In this document: piece after piece, positions 25,738-41,747 of the stretch
How the letters are laid out: every line of letters begins with the position of its first letter
Position numbering within the stretch: the first letter of the stretch is position 1
Source: Chloroflexota bacterium
GTDB lineage: Bacteria > Chloroflexota > Limnocylindria > P2-11E
DNA: 64,000 nt
Reading direction: 5' to 3'
NCBI GenBank assembly: GCA_027310565.1
Contig: DAIDAP010000037.1
Location: 256,163-320,162 of the forward strand
Position numbers and translations under genes: made by a program
Notes under the pieces: generated by a model
The model's input: only the letters and a program-made list of their open reading frames with translations
Told to the model about the DNA's origin: nothing
Database searches by the model: none

Positions 25738-26997
25738 GTGATCTCCCACCCCACCCGGTTCGTGATCATCGGCAACGGCGCCGCCGGCACCTACGCGGCC
25801 GAGCAGCTGCGCAAGGACGACACGGCCTGCGAGATCGTCATGATCGACGACGAGAAGTACACGCTCTACAACCGCGTCTCCCTCCCCCGCTACCTCAAGG
25901 GCGTCCTCCTGGAGCAGCGCGTCTACGTGCGCGACATGGACTGGCACACGAAGAACCGCATCGACCTGCGGCTCGAGACGAAGGTCACGCGCGTGAGCTT
26001 CGAGGAGAAGACGGTCACGACCGACCCCGGCGGCGAGCTGCGCTACGACCGCCTGCTCATCGCGACCGGCGGCCGCCCGAACCCGCTGCGCGTCACCGGC
26101 GCCGAGGGCGCGCGGTACCTCTTCAACTTCCAGTACTTCGACGAGACGAAGGCGATGGTCGCGCGCATTCCCGAGTCGAAGGTCGCGGTGGTCATGGGCG
26201 GGTCGTTCATCGGGTACGAGCTCACCGAGGCGTTCGCGTTCCGCAAGCTCGAGACGCACTGGATCCAGCGCGGCCCCTGGTTCCTCCGCCGTGCGCTCGA
26301 CGAGCCGGGCGGCCGTGTCGTGTCACTCCTCGCGCAGGACGCCGGCGTGCACCTCCACTACGACGAGACGATCGAGCGGATCGAGCAGGCCGACGGACGG
26401 CTCAGGGTGCACGGCTCGAAGGGCTTCCGCGCGACGGCCGACCTCGTCGGGGTCGGGCTCGGCCTCACGATGAACATCGACGTCTTCAAGGGCACCGCCC
26501 TCGAGACGAAGGTGGGCATCGTCACGAACGAGTTCCTCGAGACGAGCGTCCCCGACGTGTGGGCCGCCGGTGACGTCGCGGAGTTCTACGACCTCGTCTC
26601 GCAGCGCCACCACCGCATGGGCACCTGGGACAACGCGCTCAACCACGGGCGGCACGTCGCGAAGAACATGCTCGGCGCGAAGCAGCCGTACGTGGAGGTG
26701 CCGACGTACGCCTCCGGCATGTTCAACTCGAACATCTCGGTCATGGGTGTCACGACCGAGGAGGAGCCCGATGCCGAGTCGCTCTTCGAGGTCGACGAGG
26801 AGGGCCGCAACTACAAGCGGCTCTTCTTCCTCGGCGACCGCCTCGTCGGCGCGATCCTCATCGGGAAGATGAGGGGCCGCAAGAAGGTCCTCGAGCTGAT
26901 CTCGTCGCGCACGCCCATCGCGGAGCGGGCGAAGGTGTTCGAGCTGCTCGCGATGCCGGAGGTCACCGCCCGGCCGGCACCGTCGCACGAAGGCTAG
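25738..26997 (+). CDS. FAD-dependent pyridine nucleotide-disulfide oxidoreductase (rubredoxin/ferredoxin reductase-like)
   Basis: Dinucleotide folds VIIGNGAAGTYAAEQL and VAVVMGGSFIGYELTEAF, plus AAGDVAEF. GTG 25738 follows the RBS AGGAGCAGG; the upstream part of the 507-aa ORF overlaps the tRNA. Confidence 0.75.
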   Translation: MISHPTRFVIIGNGAAGTYAAEQLRKDDTACEIVMIDDEKYTLYNRVSLPRYLKGVLLEQRVYVRDMDWHTKNRIDLRLETKVTRVSFEEKTVTTDPGGELRYDRLLIATGGRPNPLRVTGAEGARYLFNFQYFDETKAMVARIPESKVAVVMGGSFIGYELTEAFAFRKLETHWIQRGPWFLRRALDEPGGRVVSLLAQDAGVHLHYDETIERIEQADGRLRVHGSKGFRATADLVGVGLGLTMNIDVFKGTALETKVGIVTNEFLETSVPDVWAAGDVAEFYDLVSQRHHRMGTWDNALNHGRHVAKNMLGAKQPYVEVPTYASGMFNSNISVMGVTTEEEPDAESLFEVDEEGRNYKRLFFLGDRLVGAILIGKMRGRKKVLELISSRTPIAERAKVFELLAMPEVTARPAPSHEG

Positions 26998-27003
26998 CCA
27001 GGC

Positions 27004-27672
27004 GTGCTCCAGCGCGTCTCGTTCCTCGTCCCCGGCGGCGAGCTCGAGGGCGTTCTGCACCTCCCCGAGCGCGACGCCGTCGGCGGGTGCGCGGTCCTGC
27101 ACGGCTTCGGCGGGCACCCCGACCAGCCGCACGTCGTCGCGACGTGCGCCGCGCTCGCCGGCGCGGGGGTCGCCGCGCTCCGCTTCGCGTACCGCGACCA
27201 CGAGCCGCCGCGCATGACGCTCGACTCGGCGCTCGCGGACGCGGCGGGGGCGATCCGGCTGCTGAAGGCGCATCCGTCCATCCCCGAGCGACTCGGCGTC
27301 GTCGGATTCTCGTTCGGCGGCGCGGTCGCGGCGATCGCCGCCGGACGCGACTCCCGCATCCGGGCCGCGGTCCTGGCCGCGGCGCCGGCGATGGGGGCCG
27401 ACCATCCGCGCGCGGCCGGGGCGAAGTGGAAGCCCGTGGCCGAGCTCTCGCGCACCCGCGCGCGCGTGCTCCTCATCTGGGGCAGCCGCGACACCGTGGT
27501 CCCCATCGAGAACGCCGAGCGCTACCGCGCGGTCCTCTCGCAGGCGCGGGTCACGAACACGCTCGTGACGATCGAGGGCGGGGACCACGACTTCGAGCCC
27601 GCCGCCGCGCGGGAGCGGATGACGGCCGCCGTCGCGCAGTGGGTCGGCGAGAGCCTCGCGCGCGCCCGGTAG
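27004..27672 (+). CDS. Alpha/beta hydrolase (dienelactone-hydrolase-like)
   Basis: Nucleophile elbow GFSFGG and overall alpha/beta hydrolase pattern (HGFGGH...GFSFGG...WGSRDTVVP). Confidence 0.65.
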   Translation: MLQRVSFLVPGGELEGVLHLPERDAVGGCAVLHGFGGHPDQPHVVATCAALAGAGVAALRFAYRDHEPPRMTLDSALADAAGAIRLLKAHPSIPERLGVVGFSFGGAVAAIAAGRDSRIRAAVLAAAPAMGADHPRAAGAKWKPVAELSRTRARVLLIWGSRDTVVPIENAERYRAVLSQARVTNTLVTIEGGDHDFEPAAARERMTAAVAQWVGESLARAR

Positions 27673-27696: not shown

Positions 27697-28050
27697 ATGT
27701 TCGAGCGGCTCGCGTCAGAGGACTTCGCCTATCTCACCACGACCGGCCGCAGGACGGGCCGCGCCCATCGCATCGAGATCTGGTTCGCGATGGACCGCGG
27801 CCGGGTCTACCTGCTGTCCGGCGGAGGCGCGAGCGCCGACTGGGTGAGGAACATCCGCAAGGACGGCGCGGTGCGCATCCGGGTGGGATCGCGCGCGGTC
27901 GCCGCCAGCGCGCGGATCGTGCGCGGCGCCACGGAGGATCGCCGCGCGCGCGAGCTCCTCGACGCGAAGTACATGGGCTGGAAGCCCGGCCGGCGACTCT
28001 CGTCGTGGGCGCGCGGAGCGCTGCCCGTCGCGATCGATCTGCCCGCCTAA
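27697..28050 (+). CDS. Deazaflavin (F420)-dependent nitroreductase-family protein (DUF385/PNPOx-like)
   Basis: TGRRTGRAHRIEIWF...VYLLSGGGASADWVRNIRKDGAVRIRVG matches the Ddn/DUF385 family signature. Confidence 0.7.
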   Translation: MFERLASEDFAYLTTTGRRTGRAHRIEIWFAMDRGRVYLLSGGGASADWVRNIRKDGAVRIRVGSRAVAASARIVRGATEDRRARELLDAKYMGWKPGRRLSSWARGALPVAIDLPA

Positions 28051-28373
28051 CGAGGATCGGCGCGCTCATCCGCGCCGCGCGCGCGGCTCGTACGATGCCA
28101 CCTCGAGGACCACCTTCGCGACCGCGTCCGCGGCGCTTCGGCCGACCGCGACGAGCTGGCGGTCGGGCCGGGCGACCGCGCGGTGGCCGACCAGGTGCCG
28201 TCGTCGCGTATGGCGACGCTCACCTCGCGGATCCGCCGCTGCACCAGCCAGCTCAGCAGGGCCTCGAGCGTCGGGTCGGCACGTCTCCCGCACGATGGCC
28301 AGGGCTCGCCCACCGGATAGTCGGACACGGCGAGCCCGCGCATGACCTCGGCGCTGATCACGGCCGCGCGGGG

Positions 28374-31217
28374 TCAGCGCTTCCGGTACGCACGGAGCGC
28401 CGGCTTCACGGGACGCAGCATCCAGGAGGGTCGGCGCAGCCCACCGGGGCCGGGGCCGGGACGGGTCAGCGCGAGCCACTCGCGGTACACCGCGGTGCTC
28501 TTGGCCGTGTCGACGCTCACGTCGCCGTAGCGGTCGCCGGGATGGGCGGGCGTGATGGTCACGAGCTGGTGCCAGCAGTGGCTGCCGCTCACCGGGTCCG
28601 GGTGGACCGGGAAGGTGAGGTTCTGGTGCACGCCGGCCTCGTTCCACCACACCAGCGCCGAGTCCGGGTCGTCGCTCGGCCAGGGCGCGATGCCCTCGAT
28701 CTGCCGCAGCGTCCAGCCCTCGCCGTCGCGCTGCTCGAGCCGGACGAGCGCCGACGACCACCGGTCGCCGCCGGTCGTCGGCTGGAGCCGCCAGCGGCCC
28801 ATGTGGTGCGAGCACGCGACGATCCCCGGCCGGATCGCCTCCGTGATCCACACGCGGTTGACGAAATGGCCGATCTCGGTGCTCACGCGCAGCAGGTCGC
28901 CGAGCGCGACGCCGACCTGCGCCGCGTCGTCCGGATGCATCCAGACGGGGTTGCTGTGGCTGATCTCGTTGAGCCACTTCGCGTTCCCGCTCCGCGTGTG
29001 GATGAGCGTCGGGAGGCGGAACGTCGGCAGGAGCAGGAAGCGCCCCTTCGTCGGATCGACCGCCGTCATCGGCACGTGCCCCGGCGTGTACGAGGGCGTG
29101 TCGTACTCGGGCCACTTCCAGTCGCGCAGCGTCGGCGAGTAGAACTCGAGCTTCCCCGAGGGCGTCGGGAATCCCTGCCGCGCGACCCCGTCGACGACCG
29201 CGCCGACGACCTGCCGCGCGACGACGCCGTCCCCCTGCGGCTCGACGAGCACGCCGGGGCCGGGGAAGTACTCGACGGGCCTCGTCACCGGCGCCCCCTC
29301 ACGGACGTCCGCGCCGGCGAGCTCGTCCGGCCGCAGCTCCCGCTCGTGCGCGCGGTACACGGTCCGGTCGACCTCGACGACGCCGTAGCGCTGCATGTAG
29401 GCGAGCGGCTCGAGGCCCTGCGCCTTCGCCTTCTCGGGCAGACCGGGAACGCTGTTCTCGAAGATCCAGCGGTAGTACTCGAGCACGGTGAGCTTCTCCC
29501 CGGGGCGGTAGGGCGACTCGAACCAGCGACGGATGCCGAGCGCGCCGTCCGGGTCGATGCGCCAGGAGAGCTCGATCCAGAACTCGTCCTCCTCCCAGAC
29601 CTCGCCCGGGTTCGCCTCATAGGTGAAGCGCACCGGCTTGCCCATCCGCTCCATCGCGACGCGGCGCACCGGCTGGCGGAACCCGAGCCAGCGGCCGGCG
29701 TGCGTCTCGTAGCTGAGGGTGTCGTGGCGCTCGGGGCCCAGGCCCATCGGGAGCACGTAGTCGGCGAGCCAGGTCGTCTCGTTCCAGACCGGCGTGAGCG
29801 CCGCGTGCAGGCCGATCAGCGACTCGTCGCGGAGCACCTCGATCCAGGAGAACCCGTCGGGGTTCGTCCACACCGGGTTGTAGACCCGGGTGAAGTACGT
29901 ATCGAGCTTGCCGCGGCCCTCCTTGAGGAAGTGCGGCAGCAGGAAGCTCATCTCGTTGTGCGCGAGCGGGTACTCGTCGGGCCAGAGGAGCTCGTTCCAC
30001 ACGTCGCTCGGCTTCGGACGGATGTACGGAGCCGGGACGAGCTTGTCCCAGAGGCTCGGCGACGTGCCGCCCGGCGTGCCGACGCTGCCGGTGAGCACGT
30101 TCAGCAGGAAGAGCGCCCGCGCCACGTGCCACCCGCCGAGGTTGCCGGCGCCGGCGGCGCGCCAGTTGTGCGCGCTGAAGGCCGACCCGGCGCGCCCGAT
30201 CTCGCGCGCGATCCGCACGATCGTCGCCGCGTCGAGCCCGCTCTCGCGCTCGGCGTGCTCCGGCGTGTACTCCTTGTAGAGATCGAGGAACGCGCCGCGG
30301 AACGAGCTGAACGAGGGCTCCAGGTCCGGCCGGCGCTCGCGCAGGTACTCCTCCCAGTTCGTCCAGCGGCGGACGAACTCGGCGTCGTGGAGCTCCTCCT
30401 CGACGATCACGCGGGCCATCGCGAGCAGCACCGCGGCCTCGCTCCCGGGCCAGGTCGGCAGCCACTCGTCGGCCATCGAGGCGGTGTTCGAAAGGCGCGG
30501 GTCCATCACCGCGACGCGGCAGCCCTTGAGCTTCGCGTCGATGATCCGCTGCGCGTGCGGGTTGAAGTAGTGCCCGGCCTCCAGGTGCGCGCTGATGAGC
30601 AGGATGAAGCGCGCGTTCGCGTAGTCGGGGGACGGCCGGTCGAAGCCCATCCAGGCCGCGTACCCGGTGCGCGCGCCGGCCGAGCAGATGTTGGTGTGGC
30701 TGTTGTGCGCGTCGATGCCCCAGGCCCAGAGCACCCGGTCGACGTAGCCGTCCTCGCCCGGCCGGCCGACGTGGTACATGATCTCGTCCTTCCGGCCCTC
30801 GACGATCGCCCTGCGCATCCGGCCGGCGATGTCGTCGAGCACCGCGTCCCACGAGACGCGCTCCCACCTGCCCTCTCCGCGCTTGCCGACCCGCCGCTGC
30901 GGATGGAGCACGCGCTCCGGGTCGGTGATCTGGTTGAGCGTCGCCGGCCCCTTCGCGCACAGCCGCCCGCGCGAGGCGGGGTGCTCGGGGTTGCCCTCGA
31001 TCTTGCGGATCTCGAGCGACTCGCGGTCCACGTACGCGAGCTGCCCGCACCCGGCCTCGCAGTTGAAGCAGATGGTCGGGACGAGCATGTAGTGGTGCTC
31101 GATCTTGCGCGGCCAGGCGCGCCCCTCGTACTCGACCCAGTCGTCCCAGCGCTCCCTGGGGGGCGTCGTCGGGAACTCGCCGTGCGGTCCGGGCAGTGGC
31201 ATCTGTCGCTCCTCCAT
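28374..31217 (-). CDS. Molybdopterin (bis-MGD) oxidoreductase catalytic subunit, PsrA/PhsA/TtrA/SoeA-like, without Tat signal
   Basis: 947 aa; N-terminal cluster motif CFNCEAGCGQ...C. MopB domains throughout. ATG 31217 (MEERQMPLPGP...) overlaps the stop of the upstream FeS-NrfD gene (TGATG). No RRxFLK twin-arginine motif. The 1437-aa ORF is an artefact fusing this gene with antisense sequence. Confidence 0.85.
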   Translation of the reverse strand: MEERQMPLPGPHGEFPTTPPRERWDDWVEYEGRAWPRKIEHHYMLVPTICFNCEAGCGQLAYVDRESLEIRKIEGNPEHPASRGRLCAKGPATLNQITDPERVLHPQRRVGKRGEGRWERVSWDAVLDDIAGRMRRAIVEGRKDEIMYHVGRPGEDGYVDRVLWAWGIDAHNSHTNICSAGARTGYAAWMGFDRPSPDYANARFILLISAHLEAGHYFNPHAQRIIDAKLKGCRVAVMDPRLSNTASMADEWLPTWPGSEAAVLLAMARVIVEEELHDAEFVRRWTNWEEYLRERRPDLEPSFSSFRGAFLDLYKEYTPEHAERESGLDAATIVRIAREIGRAGSAFSAHNWRAAGAGNLGGWHVARALFLLNVLTGSVGTPGGTSPSLWDKLVPAPYIRPKPSDVWNELLWPDEYPLAHNEMSFLLPHFLKEGRGKLDTYFTRVYNPVWTNPDGFSWIEVLRDESLIGLHAALTPVWNETTWLADYVLPMGLGPERHDTLSYETHAGRWLGFRQPVRRVAMERMGKPVRFTYEANPGEVWEEDEFWIELSWRIDPDGALGIRRWFESPYRPGEKLTVLEYYRWIFENSVPGLPEKAKAQGLEPLAYMQRYGVVEVDRTVYRAHERELRPDELAGADVREGAPVTRPVEYFPGPGVLVEPQGDGVVARQVVGAVVDGVARQGFPTPSGKLEFYSPTLRDWKWPEYDTPSYTPGHVPMTAVDPTKGRFLLLPTFRLPTLIHTRSGNAKWLNEISHSNPVWMHPDDAAQVGVALGDLLRVSTEIGHFVNRVWITEAIRPGIVACSHHMGRWRLQPTTGGDRWSSALVRLEQRDGEGWTLRQIEGIAPWPSDDPDSALVWWNEAGVHQNLTFPVHPDPVSGSHCWHQLVTITPAHPGDRYGDVSVDTAKSTAVYREWLALTRPGPGPGGLRRPSWMLRPVKPALRAYRKR

Positions 31218-32749
31218 CAGCTGAGCGGGACCGCCTGGCCCGCGCGGATCCACGAATCCTCGTACGCGAGGAGGCCGAGCAGCGCGGCGAGCGCGGCGGC
31301 GACGGCGAGCCCGGACGTGATCCCGGCACCGAGCGAGGCGAGCGCGAGGGCGACCGGCAGCGCGACGCCGAGGGCGACCGCGCCGACCCAGAAGCGCGCC
31401 GCGGTCGCGCCGTGCGTCATGGCGCGGGCGGCGAGACGCACGTCGTTGCTCGCGTGGGGCGTGACGAGCTCGGCCGCGACGAAGAGCGCGTGGAGCGCGG
31501 CGCCCGCGACGATGGCCACGAAGAGCGGCGGGAGCGCGTCGGTCGCGCCCATGGCCGCGGCGGCGACGACGAGGACGGCCGCGCCGGCGAGGGCCGCCTG
31601 GACCACGAGGTGCAGCGGCAGGAGCGGCGACTGCCAGAAGTCCCGTCCCTCGGCCTGACCGAAGAGGAAGCCGCTGTAGCCGGCGGCCGCGGCCGCGAAC
31701 GCGATGCCCGCCAGCCCCAGCGGCGCCACGAAGCCGGCCAGCCCGAGGACGATCGCGGCGCCCCAGAGGAACGCGAGGCCGCTGAAGACCATGAGGATGT
31801 AGGCGCCCCAGACCAGCCAGGAGCGCGGATTCGGCCTGAACACCAGGTAGAGGAAGCGCTCGGGCCGCTTGAGGTCCCACACGAGCAGCGCCACGGTCGC
31901 CAGCGCGAAGAGGAGCGCGATGGCCGCCGCGACGACGCCGAACGGCTCGCGCGCCGTCCCGCCGAGCGCGAGCACCGCGGCGACGCCGAAGGCGCCGGAC
32001 GAGATCGACTTCGTCCAGAGGTAGCTCGAGACGCGCCACCCCCACGGCGCCGGATGCGCGACGTCGTACACGTCGCGCGCGGTGCCCTCGGCCATCGAGA
32101 TGCGCTGGGGGGACGGGACGGCCGGCGCCGCCCCACCGTGTCCGTCGGGGAGCTGGCCCCACATCGTGACCCCGTCGCGCCGCGAGAGGTTCGGCGTGAG
32201 CGTGAGGGCGTCGGCGGCGATGTAGAAGAGCTTCGGCTGCGTCCCCTGCTCGGGCTTGCGCACGTGCACCGGCTCGCGCGCGATGAGCCGGCTGATCGAG
32301 CTCTCGGGGTCGTCGAGGTCGCCGGAGACGATGGCCGTCTCCGGGCACACGATCTCGCACGCCGGCTTCAGCCCGACGTCCACGCGGTGCGCGCAGAAGT
32401 TGCACTTCATCGCGGTGTGCTCGCGCGGGTCGATGTACAGCGCGTCGTACGGGCAGGCCTGCATGCAGGACTTGCAGCCGATGCAGCGGCTCGTGTCGAA
32501 GTCGACGATGCCGTCGGGCCGCCGGAAGAGCGCCTTCGTCGGGCAGATCGCGACGCACGGCGCGTCCTCGCAGTGGTTGCAGCGCAGGACGGTGAAGTGC
32601 CGGCGGGTGTTGGGGAACTCCCCCTTCTCGATGTACTTCACCCACGTGCGGAAGACCCCGAGCGGGACGTCCTGCTCCTGCTTGCACGCGACCGTGCAGG
32701 CGTGGCAGCCGATGCAGCGCCGCTGGTCGATGAGGAAGCCGAAGCGCAC
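31217..32749 (-). CDS. Fused 4x[4Fe-4S] ferredoxin (PsrB/DmsB-like) and NrfD/PsrC-like polytopic membrane subunit
   Basis: N-terminal MRFGFLIDQRRCIGCHACTVAC... with four Cys clusters. The C-terminal half has about 8 TM helices of NrfD type. GTG start. Confidence 0.85.
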   Translation of the reverse strand: MRFGFLIDQRRCIGCHACTVACKQEQDVPLGVFRTWVKYIEKGEFPNTRRHFTVLRCNHCEDAPCVAICPTKALFRRPDGIVDFDTSRCIGCKSCMQACPYDALYIDPREHTAMKCNFCAHRVDVGLKPACEIVCPETAIVSGDLDDPESSISRLIAREPVHVRKPEQGTQPKLFYIAADALTLTPNLSRRDGVTMWGQLPDGHGGAAPAVPSPQRISMAEGTARDVYDVAHPAPWGWRVSSYLWTKSISSGAFGVAAVLALGGTAREPFGVVAAAIALLFALATVALLVWDLKRPERFLYLVFRPNPRSWLVWGAYILMVFSGLAFLWGAAIVLGLAGFVAPLGLAGIAFAAAAAGYSGFLFGQAEGRDFWQSPLLPLHLVVQAALAGAAVLVVAAAAMGATDALPPLFVAIVAGAALHALFVAAELVTPHASNDVRLAARAMTHGATAARFWVGAVALGVALPVALALASLGAGITSGLAVAAALAALLGLLAYEDSWIRAGQAVPLS

Positions 32750-32902
32750 CGCCTAATCAGCCAGGCGGACGCGCACGGCGGCGAGACGGAGCCGGGCCGC
32801 ACGCCAGCGGGTGCGCGCGAGCGCGACGGCCCGGTCGACCATCCCCCACCCGAGCGGCGCGACGAGCGCGTACGGCACCGGGCAGCGCGTCATCACGACC
32901 TC

Positions 32903-33157
32903 CTAGAATGCCAGGGTGATGTCGGCGTCGCTCGCGTAGGACAGGAACGCCGCCGCGCCGCAGATGTCCTGGCTGCCCTCGATGAAATCGTCGGCCTCGT
33001 AGCCGAAGACCTTCATCGTCATCGCGCAGGGGAACAGCTTCACGCCGGCCTCGACCGCGAAGTCCGTGAGCTCGCCGATCGGCGCTACCTCGAGCGACCC
33101 GTCTGCGCACTCCTTGATACGGATACGCGTACGTGCGCAGATGGTCAGACCGCACAT
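32903..33157 (-). CDS. DsrE/DsrF-like (COG2210) sulfur-relay family protein, apparently N-terminally truncated
   Basis: C-terminal signature KLFPCAMTMKVFGYEADDFIEGSQDICGAAAFLSYASDADITLAF. Only 84 aa are present; the N-terminal Rossmann-like half is absent. Confidence 0.45.
   Translation of the reverse strand: MCGLTICARTRIRIKECADGSLEVAPIGELTDFAVEAGVKLFPCAMTMKVFGYEADDFIEGSQDICGAAAFLSYASDADITLAF
33142..33151. promoter_or_regulatory. TGGTCAGACC operator copy 30 nt upstream of the TauE/SafE gene, within the 5' end of the divergent DsrE-like gene
   Basis: aTGGTCAGACCg; same palindrome as at 6.5, 12.7-12.8 and 16.2 kb. Confidence 0.5.
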
Positions 33158-33180
33158 GCCATGATGTCGAGTATGTCCGC

Positions 33181-33948
33181 ATGACCGAGGCGCTGGTCGT
33201 CCTGGCCGCGCTGGTGGCGTCGTTCCTATCCGGCCTCCTGGGGATCGGCGGCGGGATCGTCCTGGCCCCGCTGCTCCTCTACGGCCCCGGCCTGGTGGGC
33301 GAGCCCGACCTCGCCGTGAAGACCGTCACCGGGCTCACCGTGGTCCAGGCCCTCGCCGGCAGCCTCCTGGGCTCCTGGCGGCACCGCTCGTACGGGCACG
33401 TGTCGCGCGAGCTCGTGGTCGCGATGGGGCCGGCGAGCGCGCTCGGCGCCCTCGCGGGCGCGCTCGTCTCGGGCGGCAGCTCGGACCGCGTCCTGCTGGC
33501 GGTCTTCGCGGCCATCTCGTTCGCCGGCGCCCTGCTCCTGCTGCTCCCGCCACCGCAGCCACCGCCGACCGGCGACGGCCACAACGTCCCGCTGGCCGTG
33601 GCGATCGCGAGCGGCCTCGGCGTGCTGGGCGGCATGGTGGGAGTGGCCGGCATCGCGTCCATCATCGCCGCTCTCGTGTACGTGCTGCGCGTCCCGGCCC
33701 GCGTCGCGATCGGCACGAGCCTGGGCGTGGGCCTGTTCGGCGCCGTCGCCGCGCTCGTGGGGAAGGCGGCGACCGCGCAGCTCGACCTCGGGCTCGGGCT
33801 CCTCGTTCTCGTCGCCGCGGTGGCCGGCTCCCCCGCCGGCGCCTGGCTGAGCATGCGCTCGCGCCCGCGGATCCTGCTCGTGACGCTCGCGGTCATCGTG
33901 GCCGCGAGCGGAGCGCGCATCGGCTGGAGCGCGGCGTTCGGGGTCTGA
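33181..33948 (+). CDS. TauE/SafE (TSUP, DUF81) family sulfite/anion exporter
   Basis: Characteristic paired glycine-rich TM motifs (LSGLLGIGGGIVLAPLL...; GVLGGMVGVAG). ATG 33181. Confidence 0.7.
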   Translation: MTEALVVLAALVASFLSGLLGIGGGIVLAPLLLYGPGLVGEPDLAVKTVTGLTVVQALAGSLLGSWRHRSYGHVSRELVVAMGPASALGALAGALVSGGSSDRVLLAVFAAISFAGALLLLLPPPQPPPTGDGHNVPLAVAIASGLGVLGGMVGVAGIASIIAALVYVLRVPARVAIGTSLGVGLFGAVAALVGKAATAQLDLGLGLLVLVAAVAGSPAGAWLSMRSRPRILLVTLAVIVAASGARIGWSAAFGV

Positions 33949-33970
33949 TGCGCGTCGACGAAGCTCGCTC

Positions 33971-35539
33971 TTACGGGCCCTCGTGGTCGTCGTCGGGGAC
34001 GAGCGCGACCGAGTTCGAGAGCGGGTTCAGCGTGCAGTCCGAGCACTCGAGGACGTCGCCGTATTGCCCGCCCCAGAAGCCGCGGATCTCGCTTCCGCTC
34101 ACGAGGCCTTCGTAGAAGGTGAACGGCGCCACGGTGAAGAGATGGACCCGGTCGATCTTTTCGTTCCCGTTCGGGTCGACGTTCGAGCAGTCCGACCCGT
34201 CGCCGATGAGGCTCCACTCCTCGCCGGGCTGACCGGGCGAGTAGGTCTCGGCGCAGTCCCACAGGAACACGATGACGACGAGCCCCTTCCCGTACGGCTT
34301 CCCGGACTTGGTGAACCGGTCCGAGAACGGCGCGTTCGGGTCGCCTTCGCGCTGGATGAGCGAGCGCATGTTGTCCGCGATGTTGTCGCCGAGGTTCCCC
34401 GACGCGAGCGACGTCTCGACCCAGTCGCCCGTCAGCGCGTTGCCCTCGCCGCACGAGGGCGCGAGGTCCGGCCGGCTCTCGTCGTCGCACACGGCACGCT
34501 CGGTGAGCGGCGACGGCTGTTCCTGACCCTCCGGCAGGCTCGCGGAGTCCCACGCCTCGGTCAGCGAAAGCTCGCCGAGGAACGAGTAGTAGAACCAGTT
34601 CGGGATGTCGCACGTCTTGTCGTACTGCTGCGGGTCGTGGCTGCCGGCGGTGTCCCACGGGCCACCGCAGTTGCCCTGGTCGGGCTTGTCCGGCCCATTG
34701 CTGTAGTCCGTCTTCGCCTCCGCGCCGGTGCCGCTCTGATCCCATGACGCGGTCAATTGCGGGACTTCGCCACCCAAGCGCGTCGAGTACCGGGACGGGT
34801 CGATGAGGCCCTTGAAGCTCCCGTAGACGACGTCGTCCTCCCGCGATGACCAAAAGACGGTGGGCTCGACCTCCGTCGGGTCGCAGTCGCCCGGCACGCA
34901 CGGGTTGTCGAAGTCGGCCGGGTCGTAATGGCGCACCATCGGCCAGATCGGGCCCGCGAAGGACGGGACGTTCCCCGAGATTTGTGCCCGGGCGGAGGCG
35001 GCCGCGTCGATCGCCGGCCGCCCGATCACCGACGCCACGAGCGACCGGTACGTCGTGGAGACCGCCACGCGGACGTACACGGTGTCGCCCGGGACGATCT
35101 GGCTACCCGCAGGATCGTCGCAGACGCCGAGCGCCGAGGCGGCCGAGGTCCACACGATCGGATCGGTGTCGCTGCCGAACTGTAGGGTGAACTCCGTCGT
35201 GCTCTCGCGGATCTGGAACGCGTCGTTCGCGTCCACGAAGCGCTTCGCCTCGCACCAGACGTCCTCGCCGTGGACGGCGAACGCGATCCGGTCGTCGACC
35301 AGGATCACCGATGTCGCCAGCTGCCGCGCCGCCCCGAGGGCCGCTGCGTCGGCGGCGGTCTGCAGGACGCGGCGCTGGGTCAGGCCGTAGCCCCAGTCGA
35401 CCGCGAGGGCGAGCGCCCCCAGCAGGACGACGATCGACAGGGCGACGACGACCATCGACTGCCCGGCCTCGGACCCTGTGAGCCGCTTCGTGAGCGATCG
35501 CACGACAGCGATCCTTTCGCCGGGCGGGGCGCGTGCCAA
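33971..35539 (-). CDS. TadG/TadE-like pilus-assembly protein, large pseudopilin-type with extended C-terminal domain
   Basis: N-terminus GQSMVVVALSIVVLLGALALAVDWGYGL...LQTAADAAALGAARQ is the Tad TadE/TadG signature. The protein is about 520 aa. The overlapping 540-aa ORF in another frame is rejected. Confidence 0.65.
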   Translation of the reverse strand: MARAPPGERIAVVRSLTKRLTGSEAGQSMVVVALSIVVLLGALALAVDWGYGLTQRRVLQTAADAAALGAARQLATSVILVDDRIAFAVHGEDVWCEAKRFVDANDAFQIRESTTEFTLQFGSDTDPIVWTSAASALGVCDDPAGSQIVPGDTVYVRVAVSTTYRSLVASVIGRPAIDAAASARAQISGNVPSFAGPIWPMVRHYDPADFDNPCVPGDCDPTEVEPTVFWSSREDDVVYGSFKGLIDPSRYSTRLGGEVPQLTASWDQSGTGAEAKTDYSNGPDKPDQGNCGGPWDTAGSHDPQQYDKTCDIPNWFYYSFLGELSLTEAWDSASLPEGQEQPSPLTERAVCDDESRPDLAPSCGEGNALTGDWVETSLASGNLGDNIADNMRSLIQREGDPNAPFSDRFTKSGKPYGKGLVVIVFLWDCAETYSPGQPGEEWSLIGDGSDCSNVDPNGNEKIDRVHLFTVAPFTFYEGLVSGSEIRGFWGGQYGDVLECSDCTLNPLSNSVALVPDDDHEGP

Positions 35540-35778
35540 TACCGTGAACTGCGGATGCCGAGATGCCCGACCGCATCACGGTTCAGCGCGACGAATACGT
35601 GCGACACACGAAAGATCAGTGCGACGATACGTCGCGAGCGGGCACTCGACTTTCGCGCTCGCCCTACTGATTCTCCCGTACGAATTCGCGGCGACGAGGT
35701 CGTGGGGCAAAGACGTGCGCGACTTCACGACGTTCGGCACTCGTCGCGGCCGGTCGCACCGCGGCAACGTTCACGATC

Positions 35779-36441
35779 ATGATCCTGGTCTTCGATCGTG
35801 AGGGCTCCATCTTCCAGCAGCTGCGCGACCTCGACCTGAATCTCCCGCTCTGGCGCGTGAGCGATCCCTCGCGCCTGGACCGCACCAACGACATCGACCT
35901 CGCGATCGTGGCCACGCGGGACCAGCTGCCCTGGGACCTGATGACGAACGCGGACCGGCCCTTCGACACCGTCGTGCTCACGGACCGGTACGACGCCGAC
36001 GAGGCTCTCGAGGCCGCGCTCCACGGGGTCGTCGGCTACCTCGACGCGAGGGCGCCGGCGCCGCTCCTCCGGCGCTCGATCCAGGCGATCCTGCGCGGCG
36101 AGCCCGGATTCACCCGCGCGACGCTCGGTCAATGGGTCCGGCGCCAGCGCTCCTGCTCTCGCGCGCGCCTCAGCTACCGCGGTCTCACCGAGCGCCAGCG
36201 CGAGGTCCTCCGCCTCGTCGCGGATGGTCTCGCCGACAAGGAGATCGCGCAGCGGCTGGGCATCGCGACCGCGACCGCGCAGAAGCACGTGACCAACATC
36301 CTCGAGCGCCTCGGTGTCTCGAATCGCGCGGCCGCGGCGGCGGCGATCTGCTGGCAGGGGCTGGAGGCGCTGTGCTCCACCTGCGAGCGGCCCGCGAGCG
36401 CGTCGGATGCGCGGCCTCGTCTCATGCCCAGCATCGCGTAG
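35779..36441 (+). CDS. LuxR-family response regulator (degenerate receiver plus LuxR HTH)
   Basis: C-terminal LTERQREVLRLVADGLADKEIAQRLGIATATAQKHVTNILERLGV; N-terminal receiver-like domain (MILVFD...). Confidence 0.75.
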   Translation: MILVFDREGSIFQQLRDLDLNLPLWRVSDPSRLDRTNDIDLAIVATRDQLPWDLMTNADRPFDTVVLTDRYDADEALEAALHGVVGYLDARAPAPLLRRSIQAILRGEPGFTRATLGQWVRRQRSCSRARLSYRGLTERQREVLRLVADGLADKEIAQRLGIATATAQKHVTNILERLGVSNRAAAAAAICWQGLEALCSTCERPASASDARPRLMPSIA

Positions 36442-36492
36442 CGGCCAGATTTCGGTATTTACCCCGACACGCGCGATGACGACGCTCATCGC

Positions 36493-37131
36493 ATGTATCG
36501 CGCGCTCGTCGCGTGCCTCGCCGTCGCGGCGGGTCTCGCGCTGAGCATCCAGTCGAGCCCCGGCGCGCCGGCGGCCGTGCCGCCGGTGCCGATCGTGTCA
36601 CCCATGCCGACGATCGCGTCACCGACGCCGCAGGCGATGGCCACGACACCGTTCGGCGCCGCATCGGCGCCTGCGACCCCGTCGGCGACGCCGGAGCCGC
36701 GGAGCATCGAGGGCGTCCACATCGTCATCGAGCGTCTCGCGATCGATCTCCCGCTCGTGTGGGGCGACGTCCAGCGCGATGTACCCCGCGAGGGCTATCC
36801 GGGAGCGACCCCCGAGCGGGTCGCGCTCGTCTTCCCGGGCAGCGCGCTGCCGGGGACCGGCGGGAACACGTACGTCTACTCCCATGCCCGCACCGGCATG
36901 TTCCTGTCGCTGTGGCAGGCGAGGTTCGGCGATCAGGTCGTGCTCCGCTGGCCGGACGGATGGCAGCTGGGCTACGTCGTGACCGAGATCGTCCCCCGCG
37001 TGGATCCGAGCGACACGCGCTGGCTTGACGCGGCAGGCCCGGAGCGCCTCACGCTCCAGACGTCGACCGGTCCCTACCCATGGAATCCGCGCTTCATCGT
37101 GGTCGCCGTCCCACTCGGGAGATCGTCGTGA
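36493..37131 (+). CDS. Sortase-fold protein with Ser replacing the catalytic Cys (TLQTS instead of TLxTC); signal/TM anchor plus Pro/Ala linker
   Basis: Matches the sortase pattern motif by motif: PGTGGNTYVYSHAR (GN..GHR His motif), FGDQVVL, YVVTEI, LTLQTSTGP (Cys-to-Ser position), NPRFIVVA (Arg motif). Paralogue at 46351..47136. Confidence 0.6.
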   Translation: MYRALVACLAVAAGLALSIQSSPGAPAAVPPVPIVSPMPTIASPTPQAMATTPFGAASAPATPSATPEPRSIEGVHIVIERLAIDLPLVWGDVQRDVPREGYPGATPERVALVFPGSALPGTGGNTYVYSHARTGMFLSLWQARFGDQVVLRWPDGWQLGYVVTEIVPRVDPSDTRWLDAAGPERLTLQTSTGPYPWNPRFIVVAVPLGRSS

Positions 37132-37556
37132 CACGACGCCGTATCCGCGTCTGCGTCGTCGACGCGGGTCCGGGTGTCGCCGCCTACCCGCGTCTCGACG
37201 AGTGCGACCTCGAAGTCGTCGGCGCGCTCCCGGGGATCGCGGACGCGCTCCGCGCGCCGATCAGCGACCTCGATCTCGTCATCGTCGGCGCGTTTCCGAG
37301 GGACCTGCGGGACGCCCGCTTCCAGTCGCGGATCACCCGCCTCGCCCGGCGGCTGCCGACGGCGCTCGTCGTGCCGAAAGTCACGCGGCGCGCCGCCATC
37401 GTCGCGGCGAATGCGCGCGTGAGCGCGCTCGTGGTCCGCGACGCGCCGCCGACGACGTTCGTGCACGCGATGCGGGCGGCATTTCGCGGCGAGGTCGCCT
37501 ACCCGCACGAGGCCGTCACGCGCCTCCTCCGGCTCGTCCCAACGCAACCCGTCTGA
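37128..37556 (+). CDS. Hypothetical receiver-like (CheY-fold?) protein
   Basis: VTRRRIRVCVVDAGPG...DLVIVGAF resembles a degenerate REC domain. The GTGA overlap with the upstream gene supports translation. Confidence 0.35.
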   Translation: MTRRRIRVCVVDAGPGVAAYPRLDECDLEVVGALPGIADALRAPISDLDLVIVGAFPRDLRDARFQSRITRLARRLPTALVVPKVTRRAAIVAANARVSALVVRDAPPTTFVHAMRAAFRGEVAYPHEAVTRLLRLVPTQPV

Positions 37557-37640
37557 CCCCCGGTGACTTACCGACTTCACGGAGGGTGGCGGCATTCTTC
37601 GGTATGGCCGTCACCGCCGGCGCTCCATACCGTCGGATGC

Positions 37641-38033
37641 GTGAGCGAACGAGGTCAGAGTCTCGTCGAGGTCGCGATCGCCCTGCCCTTCCTGCTCATC
37701 GTGCTGGTCGGGCTCGTCGATCTCGGGCGCGTCTTCCACTACACGATCGCGGTGGAGACGGGCGTGCGCGAGGGCGCCGCGTACGCGGCGCGGCTGGTGG
37801 CACCCGACGACGACGCGATCCGCCAGCGCATCTGCGAGGCGAGCGGCATCGCCACCGAGGGCGGCCCGTGCGACGGGCTCACCCTCACGGAGGCGCGCGT
37901 CGGCGGCGAGGGCGGGGGCTTCGTCGACGTCATGTACGACCTCGACCTGCTCTTCGGCCACATCCTCCGCTTCGCCGACCCCGGCCCCGTGCACCTGCGC
38001 GCGACCGCGACCTTCCCGAGTCTCGTGAGATGA
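37641..38033 (+). CDS. tadE: TadE-like pseudopilin
   Basis: GQSLVEVAIALPFLLIVLVGLVDLGRVFHYTIAVE (TadE N-terminal motif). GTG 37641. Confidence 0.75.
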   Translation: MSERGQSLVEVAIALPFLLIVLVGLVDLGRVFHYTIAVETGVREGAAYAARLVAPDDDAIRQRICEASGIATEGGPCDGLTLTEARVGGEGGGFVDVMYDLDLLFGHILRFADPGPVHLRATATFPSLVR

Positions 38034-38503
38034 GACGTCCCGTGTCGACCCGCGCGAATGGTTTCGCGAAGGACGTGCGCGGCGTGGCGATCGTCGAGTT
38101 CGCGATCGTCATGCCGATCCTCCTTCTCCTGCTCGTCGGCATTTTCGAGCTGGGACGCGCGTACAACGCGTACGCCACCGTGCGCAGCGCGAGCGCCGAG
38201 GGCGCCCATTGGGCCGCGCTGCACCCCGGCGCGGCGATGTCGGAGATCGAGGCCGCCGTTCTGCGGCGCGTGGTCCCGCTCGACACGCGGCGCGTGTCGG
38301 TCGAGGCCTGGTACGACGACGGCACCGCGTACGTCCGGTGGGATGAGGGCGGCATCCCGGCCTCCGGCCCCAGCAAGCGCATCGTGCCGATCCGTGTCCA
38401 GGTCAGCTATCCCTGGTCCGCCGTGACCTTCCTCTTCAGCAGCGTCCTGCCAGAGCGTTCCGCGACCTTCACCGCGACAACGACCGCCGACGCGATGCGA
38501 TGA
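38030..38503 (+). CDS. TadE-like pseudopilin (second copy)
   Basis: RGVAIVEFAIVMPILLLLLVGIFELGRAYNAYATV. ATGA overlap with the preceding tadE. Confidence 0.75.
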   Translation: MRRPVSTRANGFAKDVRGVAIVEFAIVMPILLLLLVGIFELGRAYNAYATVRSASAEGAHWAALHPGAAMSEIEAAVLRRVVPLDTRRVSVEAWYDDGTAYVRWDEGGIPASGPSKRIVPIRVQVSYPWSAVTFLFSSVLPERSATFTATTTADAMR

Positions 38504-38527
38504 CGGCGGCGAGAAAAGGAGCCTGAC

Positions 38528-39250
38528 GTGCGCGCCTCGAGATCCTGGATCTTCCTCGTCATCGGTGTCGTCCTCGCCGTCGCGACCGGCATCGTCCTCT
38601 ACCAGATCGCGGCGTCGCCGCCCACCGCCCAGGCGACGGTGAACGGGGCGACGGTCAGCATCGTCGTCGCGACGGCGGATATCGCCCCGCGGACCGTGAT
38701 CGCCGCGGACGTGGTGACCATGAAGGCCTACCCGACCGACCTCGTGCCGCCGGGCGCGCTCACCGGCCAGACCGACGCGGTGGGCGCCACCACGAGCATC
38801 CGCATCTCGAAAGGCCAGCCGGTCCTGCGCGACGCGCTCTCGGCGGCGAGCCCGAGCGCGGTGAGCAGCAGCGTGATCCCAGCCGGCAAGGTCATGGTCG
38901 CGTTCCCGACGAACGATCCGCTCACCACCGCCGGCCTCGTGAGCGTCGGCGACCGCGTCGACCTGCTCGCCACCGTCGTCGTCGGCACGGGCGAGGGCAC
39001 GCGGACGACACAGACCACGCTCCAGAACCTCGATGTCGCGGAGGTCATCCTGCCCACGAAGGAACAGCCGCAGCGGGTCCGCTCGCTCGTCTTCGTCGTG
39101 GACCACCAGGTCGCCCTCGTCCTCAAGTACCTGCGCGACGCCGAGACCACCGTCGACCTCACGATCCGATCCCGCGCCGAGACGGCGCTCGTGAAGACGA
39201 CGAAGGTCGATCTCGAGTACCTCGTCAACACGTACGAGATGAAGAAGTGA
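38528..39250 (+). CDS. cpaB: Flp pilus assembly protein CpaB (RcpC-like)
   Basis: N-terminal TM, SAF-like domain (GATVSIVVATADIAPRTVIAADVV) and C-terminal domain typical of CpaB. Confidence 0.75.
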   Translation: MRASRSWIFLVIGVVLAVATGIVLYQIAASPPTAQATVNGATVSIVVATADIAPRTVIAADVVTMKAYPTDLVPPGALTGQTDAVGATTSIRISKGQPVLRDALSAASPSAVSSSVIPAGKVMVAFPTNDPLTTAGLVSVGDRVDLLATVVVGTGEGTRTTQTTLQNLDVAEVILPTKEQPQRVRSLVFVVDHQVALVLKYLRDAETTVDLTIRSRAETALVKTTKVDLEYLVNTYEMKK

Positions 39251-40410
39251 CACGCGAGCGTCTGGTCCACCTCATCGACACGGACACCGGGCTCGCGGTG
39301 CAGCTGCGGGACCCGCTCGCGACGGCGCGGCTGCCCCTCGCGGGCACCCACGCCAACGTCGAGGCGCTCCTCGCGTCGGAGCGGGCCGTGCCGGACGTGG
39401 TGGTCCTCGACTGCGCGGCCACGGGCGGTGAGCCCGCTTCCGCGGTCCGCGCCGTCCTGTCACGGTGGCCGGACATCTGTGTCGTGGTCACCGGCGGCAC
39501 GCCCTCGATGCTGTCGCACGCGGTCACCGCCGGCGCGCGCGGCTTCCTCCTCAAGCCGTACGCGCCCGACGAGCTCGTCGACGTGATCAGCGAGGCGACG
39601 GCCGGGGCCCGAGCGGTACCCCACGTCGAACGGACCGACGGGAAGATCGTCGCGATGTACGGACCGAAGGGCGGATCCGGCTCCTCGACCGTCGCCGTCA
39701 GCCTCGCCGCGCTGCTCGCCGGGCGGCCCGGCCTGTCCGTCGGGCTCGTCGACCTGGATCTGCAGTTCGGCGACGTCGGCGTGCTCCTCGACGTGCGGAC
39801 GCCGAACAGCATCCGGGACCTCGTCCAGCACGAGATCGATGGCGCCCTGGTGGACGACACGTTCGTGCGCCACGGCTGCGGAGCGCGCGTCCTGCCGGCG
39901 CCCGACACGCTCCTCACGAACGGCGCGATCGAGGCCGCCGGCATCGAGCACGCGCTCGAAGGTCTGCGCCCGCACTTCGACGTGATCATCTGCGACCTTG
40001 CGCAGGCGGTCGACGACCTCACGACGCGCGTCCTGCGCCTCGCGGACCTCGTCGTGCTCGTCACGAAGCCGGAGCTCACCGCCCTCAAGAGCCTGAGCCG
40101 TCTCCTCAAAGCGAAGGAGCTCTCGCTCCGGCTCGACGACCACGTCCTCGTCGCGGTGAATCGCCTCCCCTCCCGCGGCGCGCTGAGGCCGAGCGAGGTG
40201 GAGCGCTCCATCGGCCGACCGATCACCGTCGGGATCCCGAGCGATGGCGCGGCCATCGTCGACGCCGCGAACCGCGGCGTCCCCGTGGCCGATCCGCGCG
40301 TCCACTCACGCGCGCACAAGGCGTTCGTCGACCTCGCCTCCGCGGTCGCGCGCGAGCTCGAGCTCGAGCCACCGCAGGCCGGAGGCCCGCGACTGGTGGA
40401 GGTGGCCTAG
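39247..40410 (+). CDS. cpaE: Pilus assembly protein CpaE/TadZ (N-terminal receiver-like domain plus ParA/MinD-type ATPase)
   Basis: Deviant Walker A YGPKGGSGSSTVAVSLA. REC-like N-domain. Confidence 0.8.
   Translation: MTRERLVHLIDTDTGLAVQLRDPLATARLPLAGTHANVEALLASERAVPDVVVLDCAATGGEPASAVRAVLSRWPDICVVVTGGTPSMLSHAVTAGARGFLLKPYAPDELVDVISEATAGARAVPHVERTDGKIVAMYGPKGGSGSSTVAVSLAALLAGRPGLSVGLVDLDLQFGDVGVLLDVRTPNSIRDLVQHEIDGALVDDTFVRHGCGARVLPAPDTLLTNGAIEAAGIEHALEGLRPHFDVIICDLAQAVDDLTTRVLRLADLVVLVTKPELTALKSLSRLLKAKELSLRLDDHVLVAVNRLPSRGALRPSEVERSIGRPITVGIPSDGAAIVDAANRGVPVADPRVHSRAHKAFVDLASAVARELELEPPQAGGPRLVEVA

Positions 40411-41747
<1,337 letters not shown>

Follow-up and report, generated by a model that had tools for sequence, protein, structure and literature searches.

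A fused ferredoxin-NrfD protein and a molybdoenzyme without a Tat signal: a probable cytoplasm-facing sulfite:quinone oxidoreductase in a Chloroflexota genome

A 64,000-nucleotide stretch of a Chloroflexota genome (GenBank assembly GCA_027310565.1, contig DAIDAP010000037.1, positions 256,163 to 320,162 of the forward strand; hereafter, the window) carries two overlapping genes, BC and A. BC encodes a ferredoxin fused to a membrane anchor, and A encodes a molybdopterin oxidoreductase. Together they probably form a cytoplasm-facing sulfite:quinone oxidoreductase, a reading whose substrate, electron direction, and quinone come from genomic context and from the literature on polysulfide reductase-like complex 3 (PSRLC3) and SoeABC. 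The locus itself is unexceptional; it belongs to a family that is large, conserved, and already noticed. The points of interest lie with that family: its breadth across phyla; its repeated linkage to systems that produce sulfite; its generic or misleading database names; and its apparent origin through loss of the twin-arginine (Tat) signal and gene fusion. The two genes and their parts are as follows:

28374-31217, minus strand: catalytic subunit A with molybdenum- or tungsten-bis(pyranopterin guanine dinucleotide) (Mo/W-bisPGD), 947 residues (Pfam Molybdop_Fe4S4, Molybdopterin, Molydop_binding)
31217-32749, minus strand: BC fusion protein, 510 residues, a single open reading frame (ORF) (Pfam Fer4_11, then NrfD)
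32180-32749, minus strand: ferredoxin domain of BC, residues 1-190, with four [4Fe-4S] motifs (Fer4_11; TtrB/DsrO/NrfC-like matches)
31217-32179, minus strand: BC linker (about residues 191-235), eight-helix NrfD/PsrC-type anchor (about 236-510), and stop codon (Pfam NrfD at 232-496)

A preliminary description, drawn from the DNA letters, had proposed a 947-residue catalytic subunit with the N-terminal cluster motif CFNCEAGCGQ, a partner joining a four-cluster ferredoxin to an NrfD anchor of about eight transmembrane helices in one polypeptide, and the gene order BC then A. All three elements are found. The motif occupies residues 50-59 of A; BC contains the Fer4_11 and NrfD domains, 16 invariant cysteines in its ferredoxin part, and eight helices; and the ATG of A overlaps the BC stop codon (TGATG). 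The G+C content of the window is 68-77%.

Alignment of 24 homologues shows invariant FS0 cluster ligands in A (Cys50, Cys53, Cys57, and Cys87) and an invariant motif, HNSHTNxCS, that contains Cys178. This residue aligns with the molybdenum ligand Cys173 of PsrA and with the equivalent cysteine of ArrA, and is the putative molybdenum ligand of A. Its context is C-S-A-G, with serine after Cys178; the aligned T. kivui FdhF has 'CH'. Every family-invariant residue is kept in the window BC and A, and neither reading frame is interrupted. Compared with the closest relative (87% identity), the ratio of nonsynonymous to synonymous substitution (dN/dS) is 0.14 for A and 0.22 for BC.

A reaches none of the NCBIfam equivalog cut-offs and lies far below each: PhsA, 199 bits against 694; DmsA/YnfE, 184 against 778; Fdh-alpha, 144 against 666; TtrA, 117 against 1750; and ArrA, 99 against 1600. 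NarG scores 36 bits. The best-scoring models are the sulfur, selenium, and dimethyl sulfoxide reductases, ahead of the formate and nitrate enzymes. The nearest solved structures are Thermus PsrA for A (2e-40) and PsrB (2VPW_B) for the ferredoxin domain (5.6e-54).

No Tat signal is found at any alternative start. A has a 49-residue hydrophilic leader, and BC begins 11 residues before its first CxxCxxC motif. A hydrophobic h-region occurs in none of 86 family A N-termini. Arginine dipeptides, present in 14 of the 86, were considered as Tat signals and rejected: they lie nine residues before FS0, with no hydrophobic region. The anchor has eight transmembrane helices, both by hydropathy and in an AlphaFold2 model (residues 237-262, 272-292, 311-335, 338-364, 377-400, 403-429, 450-475, and 479-505). 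The predicted local distance difference test score (pLDDT) exceeds 90 in the membrane part of the BC model, and confidence is lower in the ferredoxin part. Foldseek aligns the anchor with PsrC (2vpw_C) at a TM-score of 0.75. In all 74 homologues, lysine and arginine are concentrated in the anchor loops on the ferredoxin side (mean 10.4, versus 0.7 on the opposite side). These loops are long, rich in lysine and arginine, and the best conserved, and most of the invariant polar residues of the anchor lie in them; a quinone site near the last Fe-S cluster would be expected there. By the positive-inside rule the ferredoxin side is cytoplasmic, so that A and the ferredoxin part are predicted to face the cytoplasm. 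The preliminary description had said as much, and its Tat-less enzyme and cytoplasm-facing orientation both stand, the orientation as a prediction from the lack of a Tat signal and the charge distribution. Architecture and topology alike come from prediction and comparison.

The family is large. A protein database search listed 8000 matches, all with E of at most 1e-10, of which the best 120 were inspected. Those to A are 64-100% identical and mostly from Chloroflexota, including Candidatus Limnocylindria, and the best 120 relatives of BC are all fusions. A scan of one genome per species found at least 592 stretches with confirmed relatives of A; the best 80 of these (58-66% identity) span about a dozen phyla. 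They include Chloroflexota, Acidobacteriota, Gemmatimonadota, Chlorobium, Methylomirabilota/Rokubacteria, Binatia, and Planctomycetota, together with Bacteroidota (for example, Flavilitoribacter nigricans), Calditrichota, Actinobacteria, and 'delta-proteobacterial' metagenome-assembled genomes (MAGs). Searching plasmids with tblastn added the Thermomicrobium roseum megaplasmid (65%), Rhodococcus jostii RHA1 plasmid pRHL3 (60%), and haloarchaea (about 54%). The order B-C-A never varies among the loci, and in 72 of 74 a single reading frame covers both B and C. The fusion and the reversed order, which the preliminary description had called uncommon, are instead the defining and near-universal layout of a large family. 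Database names do not convey this: IMG calls A an 'anaerobic selenocysteine-containing dehydrogenase' and gives BC generic COG names, and in UniRef and NCBI some A proteins, including the T. roseum and Ktedonosporobacter orthologues, are named 'formate dehydrogenase'.

The sulfur connection comes from the neighbours of the family. ORFs within 6 kb of BC-A were clustered across 86 loci, and recurrent clusters were identified by Pfam. Sulfur genes neighbour BC-A in 30 of the 64 loci whose flanks reach at least 6 kb: fusions of MBL-fold and rhodanese domains, resembling persulfide dioxygenase (19 loci); TauE (12, in several phyla); SQR-like flavoproteins (9); TusA (6); YeeE/Sulf_transp (5); and DrsE_2 (4). 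DsrE and TusA genes stand directly upstream of BC-A in Rhodococcus, Acidimicrobiia, and the closest relative, and downstream in Chlorobium. The R. jostii RHA1 order is DsrE-TusA-BC-A-Mrp/NBP35, amid MBL-fold/rhodanese genes, ArsR regulators, and a thioredoxin gene (TrxA). In Chlorobium, BC-A is followed by TauE, full-length DrsE_2, rhodanese, and TusA. On the T. roseum megaplasmid, a regulator gene of the CsoR/RcnR/FrmR/CstR family (PF02583; 6078-6437 in L001/L091) lies 12-16 nucleotides upstream of BC-A; this family comprises persulfide, formaldehyde, and metal sensors. Natrinema has the order BC-A-Mrp/NBP35. The Mrp/NBP35 ATPase gene overlaps the 3' end of A both in RHA1 (11826-12995 of L086) and in Natrinema (10897-12057 of L090), and may encode a dedicated Fe-S maturation factor.

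When rDsr, sHdr, or persulfide dioxygenase oxidises sulfur in the cytoplasm, the shared product is sulfite, which is toxic. In the closest relative (L096/L104), a run of genes for an sHdrB3-like protein, EtfB, EtfA, Emo, a MarR-like protein, and two LbpA proteins is followed by lipoate ligase, a 189-residue DrsE_2 protein, a 48-residue ORF, BC, and A. By gene content this is a type II shdr-lbpA arrangement. Such clusters convert sulfane sulfur to sulfite in the cytoplasm and occur mainly in Chloroflexota, Actinobacteriota, and Bacillota (PMC11094781). Sulfite is the product that the linked systems share: the persulfide-dioxygenase-like and sHdr systems by adjacency, and rDsr by the literature. 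These neighbours make sulfite formed in the cytoplasm the candidate substrate of BC-A.

This suggests a model in which A would convert sulfite made inside the cell to sulfate at its Mo-bisPGD site, where Cys178 would be the molybdenum ligand. Electrons would pass from molybdenum to FS0 of A, through the four [4Fe-4S] clusters of the ferredoxin domain, and then to a quinone that the fused anchor would bind on its cytoplasmic side. The fusion would tether the ferredoxin to a membrane protein by way of the N-terminus of the latter, which remains within the cell; together with the loss of the Tat signal, it would fix the whole module in an orientation opposite to that of the Psr, Phs, and Ttr enzymes. 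The cultured hosts T. roseum, Ktedonosporobacter, R. jostii, and Natrinema are aerobes, and as such would fit an electron-donating role rather than that of a respiratory reductase. The energy coupling of NrfD modules is debated (compare PMC6303296 and PMC8076601).

Several points weigh against sulfite oxidation by BC-A. Database names for the family are generic or point to formate dehydrogenase, and none is SoeA, SoeB, or SoeC; the literature searched yielded no biochemical characterisation of the fused family. The likeness to SoeABC is one of architecture and description. PSRLC3 is inferred to be a sulfite-oxidising system (PMC6338057, PMC9324843, PMC5473276), so that its own assignment is an inference. 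The remaining 34 of the 64 well-flanked loci, including that of T. roseum, have no recognisable sulfur neighbour, and the MBL/rhodanese, YeeE, and TusA neighbours would also fit thiosulfate or protein-bound sulfur as substrate. Finally, the 64 kb of the window contain no sulfite-producing system (sHdr, persulfide dioxygenase, or SQR), and the DsrE gene is a remnant. The preliminary description had proposed a SoeABC-like enzyme or a cytoplasm-facing thiosulfate, tetrathionate, or polysulfide reductase. A Tat-less, cytoplasm-facing, sulfur-linked oxidoreductase that acts as a SoeABC-like sulfite dehydrogenase remains the best reading, and its support comes mainly from the context in other genomes, not from the window.

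An unlikely alternative is that BC-A acts on another sulfur species on the cytoplasmic side, either as a quinol-dependent reductase of thiosulfate, polysulfide, tetrathionate, or sulfur, or as an enzyme working on persulfide or thiosulfonate bound to DsrE or TusA. Among curated models and solved structures, A is indeed nearest to PhsA and Thermus PsrA, but the PhsA score of 199 bits is far below the cut-off of 694. DsrE and TusA genes adjoin BC-A in the four lineages named above, and YeeE/YedE-type (Sulf_transp) and rhodanese genes are frequent neighbours; set against these are three kinds of linked systems with sulfite as their common product, and TauE, from a family of sulfite/sulfonate exporters, as the second most frequent neighbour. 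Moreover, quinol-driven reduction of thiosulfate or sulfur would be endergonic and a form of anaerobic respiration, which would suit poorly the aerobic cultured hosts. In favour of this alternative, the original description of the Aquifex SoeABC was that of a sulfur reductase (PMC10100899, PMC8076601).

The surroundings of the window genes raise a second alternative. The flanking features are these:

28047-28361, minus strand: ORF of 104 residues directly downstream of A, no known domain
32753-32893, minus strand: ORF of 46 residues (MTRCPVPYALV...) with one hydrophobic stretch, between the DsrE remnant and BC
32903-33157, minus strand: truncated DsrE/DrsE_2-like ORF, 84 residues (positions 97-155 of the 156-position Pfam DrsE_2 profile)
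33064-33090: synteny breakpoint relative to the closest relative, where homology ends at 33064 by blastn and at 33088 by tblastn
33181-33948, plus strand: divergent gene for a TauE/SafE-family anion exporter, 255 residues (Pfam TauE, 1.5e-36)

The DsrE-like fragment and the TauE gene, both predicted beforehand, are thus confirmed by Pfam. The homologous part of the 84-residue ORF is 32906-33088, which corresponds to residues 129-189 of the 189-residue DrsE_2 protein and is 85% identical to that of L096. The first 23 or so codons are junction sequence, and tblastn finds the N-terminal part of DsrE nowhere in the 64-kb window. Beyond the breakpoint, L096/L104 continue into the type II shdr-etfAB-emo-lbpA-lplA genes, and the window has TauE and then a Tad pilus locus. 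On the other side, synteny with the closest relative extends downstream of A, where a 101-residue ORF, an alpha/beta hydrolase, Pyr_redox_2, S6, and SSB follow. The local sulfur clues are a gene remnant and a TauE gene brought beside it by rearrangement, an event that, judging from the breakpoint, separated the window enzyme from its sHdr partner cluster. No match to persulfide dioxygenase/rhodanese, SQR, YeeE, TusA, Mrp, Etf, sHdrB3/Emo, LbpA, or LplA was found in the 64 kb.

A FadR-type operator had also been proposed. The palindrome GGTCAGACC at 33143-33151 is the only one in the TauE/DsrE junction, and its pattern occurs at chance frequency: five times in the window versus 3.07 expected, with 22 of 100 shuffled sequences reaching five. 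No FadR/GntR family member is present among the precomputed Pfam matches for genes called on the 15-kb contig containing the locus, and the proposal is rejected. The claim that the neighbours point to sulfur metabolism survives in part: TauE recurs in other genomes, but DsrE is a remnant at a breakpoint and the operator is at chance level. A scan for sigma-70 promoters and terminators over 28000-34200 gave no match and is uninformative at 72% G+C.

The enzyme might accordingly be considered an orphan, stranded by rearrangement without a physiological role and heading to decay. The break at 33064-33090 truncates dsrE, with TauE and the Tad locus in place of shdr-lbpA; the similarity of the small ORF downstream of A to its counterpart is split between two frames; and sulfite-producing genes are lacking in the 64 kb. 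Decay is nonetheless improbable: the frames of BC and A are intact, all invariant residues are kept, and dN/dS is 0.14-0.22. In addition, many family members stand without sulfur neighbours, the search for sulfur genes covers a 64-kb window of a 448-kb contig within a larger genome, and a TauE gene adjoins.

Small ORFs lie on either side of BC-A. That of 46 residues, which may or may not encode a small membrane protein, keeps its position and is 70% identical in amino acids to the 48-residue ORF of L096, with a dN/dS of 0.41 and 10, 7, and 13 differences at the three codon positions. It has no Pfam match. The CPxP motif led to its consideration as a TusA remnant, which was rejected: tblastn finds no similarity to the RHA1 or Chlorobium TusA even at E of at most 1. 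The 104-residue ORF downstream matches the 101-residue ORF of L096, itself without a Pfam match, in two frames (two tblastn segments), so that one genome or the other may have suffered a frameshift. Farther downstream, a Pyr_redox_2 plus Rubredoxin_C flavoprotein (25762-27672) and an alpha/beta hydrolase (27697-28050) belong to the synteny shared with the closest relative. At the position of a Rieske protein in that relative, the window has an F420H2-dependent quinone-reductase-like gene. The Tad/Flp-type pilus locus beside TauE (about 33971-41000) comprises genes for a Tad-domain protein, two TadE proteins, an RcpC/CpaB-like protein, a ParA/CpaE-like ATPase, a sortase, and a GerE/LuxR-type regulator.

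Least probable is a formate:quinone oxidoreductase ('FqoABC'), suggested by the UniRef and NCBI names of the T. roseum and Ktedonosporobacter orthologues, by the CsoR/FrmR-family regulator upstream in T. roseum, and by an uncharacterised NrfD group, FqoC2, present in 48% of Chloroflexi species and tentatively tied to formate oxidation (PMC8076601), but opposed by the serine after the ligand cysteine of A, where formate dehydrogenases have histidine after cysteine or selenocysteine; by an Fdh-alpha score (144 bits versus a cut-off of 666) below those of PhsA and DmsA; by family loci in which sulfur genes recur and formate-related ones do not; and by the 'Fqo' model itself, C. tepidum CT0494, which is part of a psrABC of three genes, perhaps another PSRLC. 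The 'FqoABC' group of Calisto and Pereira (PMC8076601) is not necessarily the fused BC-A family.

More distant relatives bear on how the layout arose. Among 1.84 billion representatives at 50% identity, the whole family collapses largely onto one, 60% identical to A. Four others stand out:

Myxococcota P0243: 43% identity to A; fused BC
P0248 (L105): 46% identity to A; Tat signal; separate B and C; TorD-like chaperone
P0304: 36% identity to A; Tat signal
P0280 (L102): 35% identity to A; Tat signal; separate B and C

The P0243 locus reads sigma54 activator, MBL/rhodanese, two YedE genes, BC, and A. P0248, P0280, and P0304 have clear twin-arginine signals together with a 'YPP-E-W' motif before FS0 that is common to the A family. 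The order B-C-A is seen in the P0248 and P0280 loci, the two examined, and also in plasmid loci of Azoarcus and Sulfurovum (31-38%), which have separate B and C and a TorD chaperone. Because P0248 and P0280, among the nearest non-fused relatives, carry a Tat signal and separate B and C, the Tat-less state is presumably derived; loss of the signal and fusion of B to C appear to be coupled, derived traits of the fused family. A TorD/NarJ-like (Nitrate_red_del) chaperone gene follows A in four loci of the fused family (L006, L044, L074, and L081), although the enzyme is without export. No identifiable SoeA was found among the plasmid matches inspected (Azoarcus, Sulfurovum, Rhizobium, Pseudohalocynthiibacter, Thioclava, Ralstonia, and Agrobacterium), in the representative search, or among the cluster names.

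These strands can be joined into one broader proposal, which we put forward tentatively. The fused BC-A family might be the main cytoplasmic sulfite:quinone oxidoreductase outside Proteobacteria. In Chloroflexota, Acidobacteriota, Actinobacteria, Bacteroidota, Gemmatimonadota, haloarchaea, and others, it would carry to completion the sulfur oxidation begun by SQR and persulfide dioxygenase or by type II sHdr. Routine annotation, with its 'formate dehydrogenase' or generic names, would largely miss the family. It would descend from a Tat-exported B-C-A-TorD ancestor that lost its signal and fused B to C, inverting the quinone module. If so, the family could account for cases in which a survey detects active sulfite oxidation without any SoeABC (for example, PMC12345210), and gene-based surveys of the sulfur cycle may under-count sulfite oxidation. 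Many soil and sediment heterotrophs would have a complete route from sulfide to sulfate that feeds the quinone pool. Moreover, the family would offer a natural case of a respiratory module inverted by Tat loss and fusion, in which the coupling of NrfD proteins could be tested in the opposite orientation. For the window itself, the gain is mostly better annotation and the record of a rearrangement.

Comparison with known systems places the window enzyme closest to PSRLC3 of green sulfur bacteria. The A protein is 60-61% identical over residues 6-944 to those of Chlorobium sp. N1 and two Chlorobium MAGs, with the same BC-A synteny; by identity and synteny together, the genes appear orthologous. 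These Chlorobium loci were equated with PSRLC3 through the two-gene description in the literature, an equation that reportedly accords with Frigaard and Bryant 2008. PSRLC3 is encoded by two genes (PMC5473276): a fused PsrB/PsrC-like protein, then a Tat-less PsrA-like protein, as in the window. The family context is also shared, with DsrE, Rhd, TusA, and TauE genes nearby in Chlorobium. The window differs in its host, a Chloroflexota genome of heterotroph type rather than a phototroph with rDsr, and in its truncated sulfur-relay partner. The window enzyme is best filed with the PSRLC3 type, which the literature treats as the green-sulfur equivalent of SoeABC. One passage of a review (PMC8232776, quoting Dahl et al. 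2013) describes the SoeABC genes as universally present in purple and green sulfur bacteria.

SoeABC of Allochromatium vinosum and Aquifex aeolicus shares with the window enzyme a Mo-bisPGD subunit that faces the cytoplasm, has an Fe-S site near its N-terminus, and lacks a Tat signal; an Fe-S protein with four clusters; and an eight-helix NrfD/PsrC-type anchor that is predicted to be inverted (PMC8076601, PMC5114278). The reaction is likely identical. SoeABC, however, consists of three separate polypeptides encoded in the order soeA-soeB-soeC, whereas in the window B and C are fused and precede A.

Thermus thermophilus PsrABC (2VPW) provides the best solved relatives of all three modules. Its cysteine molybdenum ligand aligns with that of A, and its anchor N-terminus lies on the same side as the Fe-S subunit. 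In contrast, PsrABC is Tat-exported and periplasm-facing, with three separate subunits and an A subunit of 765 residues. The window A is about 180 residues longer, and only residues 46-385 and 680-807 align well. It is set apart from the Psr/Phs reductases by the absence of a Tat signal and by a PhsA score below the cut-off, and from the Ttr, Arr, and Dms reductases by scores below the respective equivalog cut-offs.

The Tat-dependent B-C-A-TorD complexes (for example, P0248, P0280, and, by their layout, Azoarcus sp. KH32C pAZKH and a Sulfurovum mangrovi plasmid) are the nearest non-fused relatives, at 31-46% identity. They share the gene order of the window, but B and C are two genes, usually accompanied by a TorD/NarJ chaperone and an extra Fe-S protein, although not at P0280. 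In the few such loci inspected, no sulfur neighbour recurred.

QrcABCD and alternative complex III contain the same two-part quinone-interacting module of an Fe-S protein and an NrfD protein without haem (PMC6303296), and Foldseek also matches the window anchor to the ActC fold. Their anchors have 10 helices and face the periplasm, versus eight helices in the window anchor. The fusions differ too: alternative complex III joins its molybdoenzyme-like domain to the Fe-S domain (ActB), whereas the window protein joins the Fe-S domain to the anchor. The molybdoenzyme-like domain of alternative complex III is cofactor-less; A of the window keeps FS0 and the cysteine ligand.

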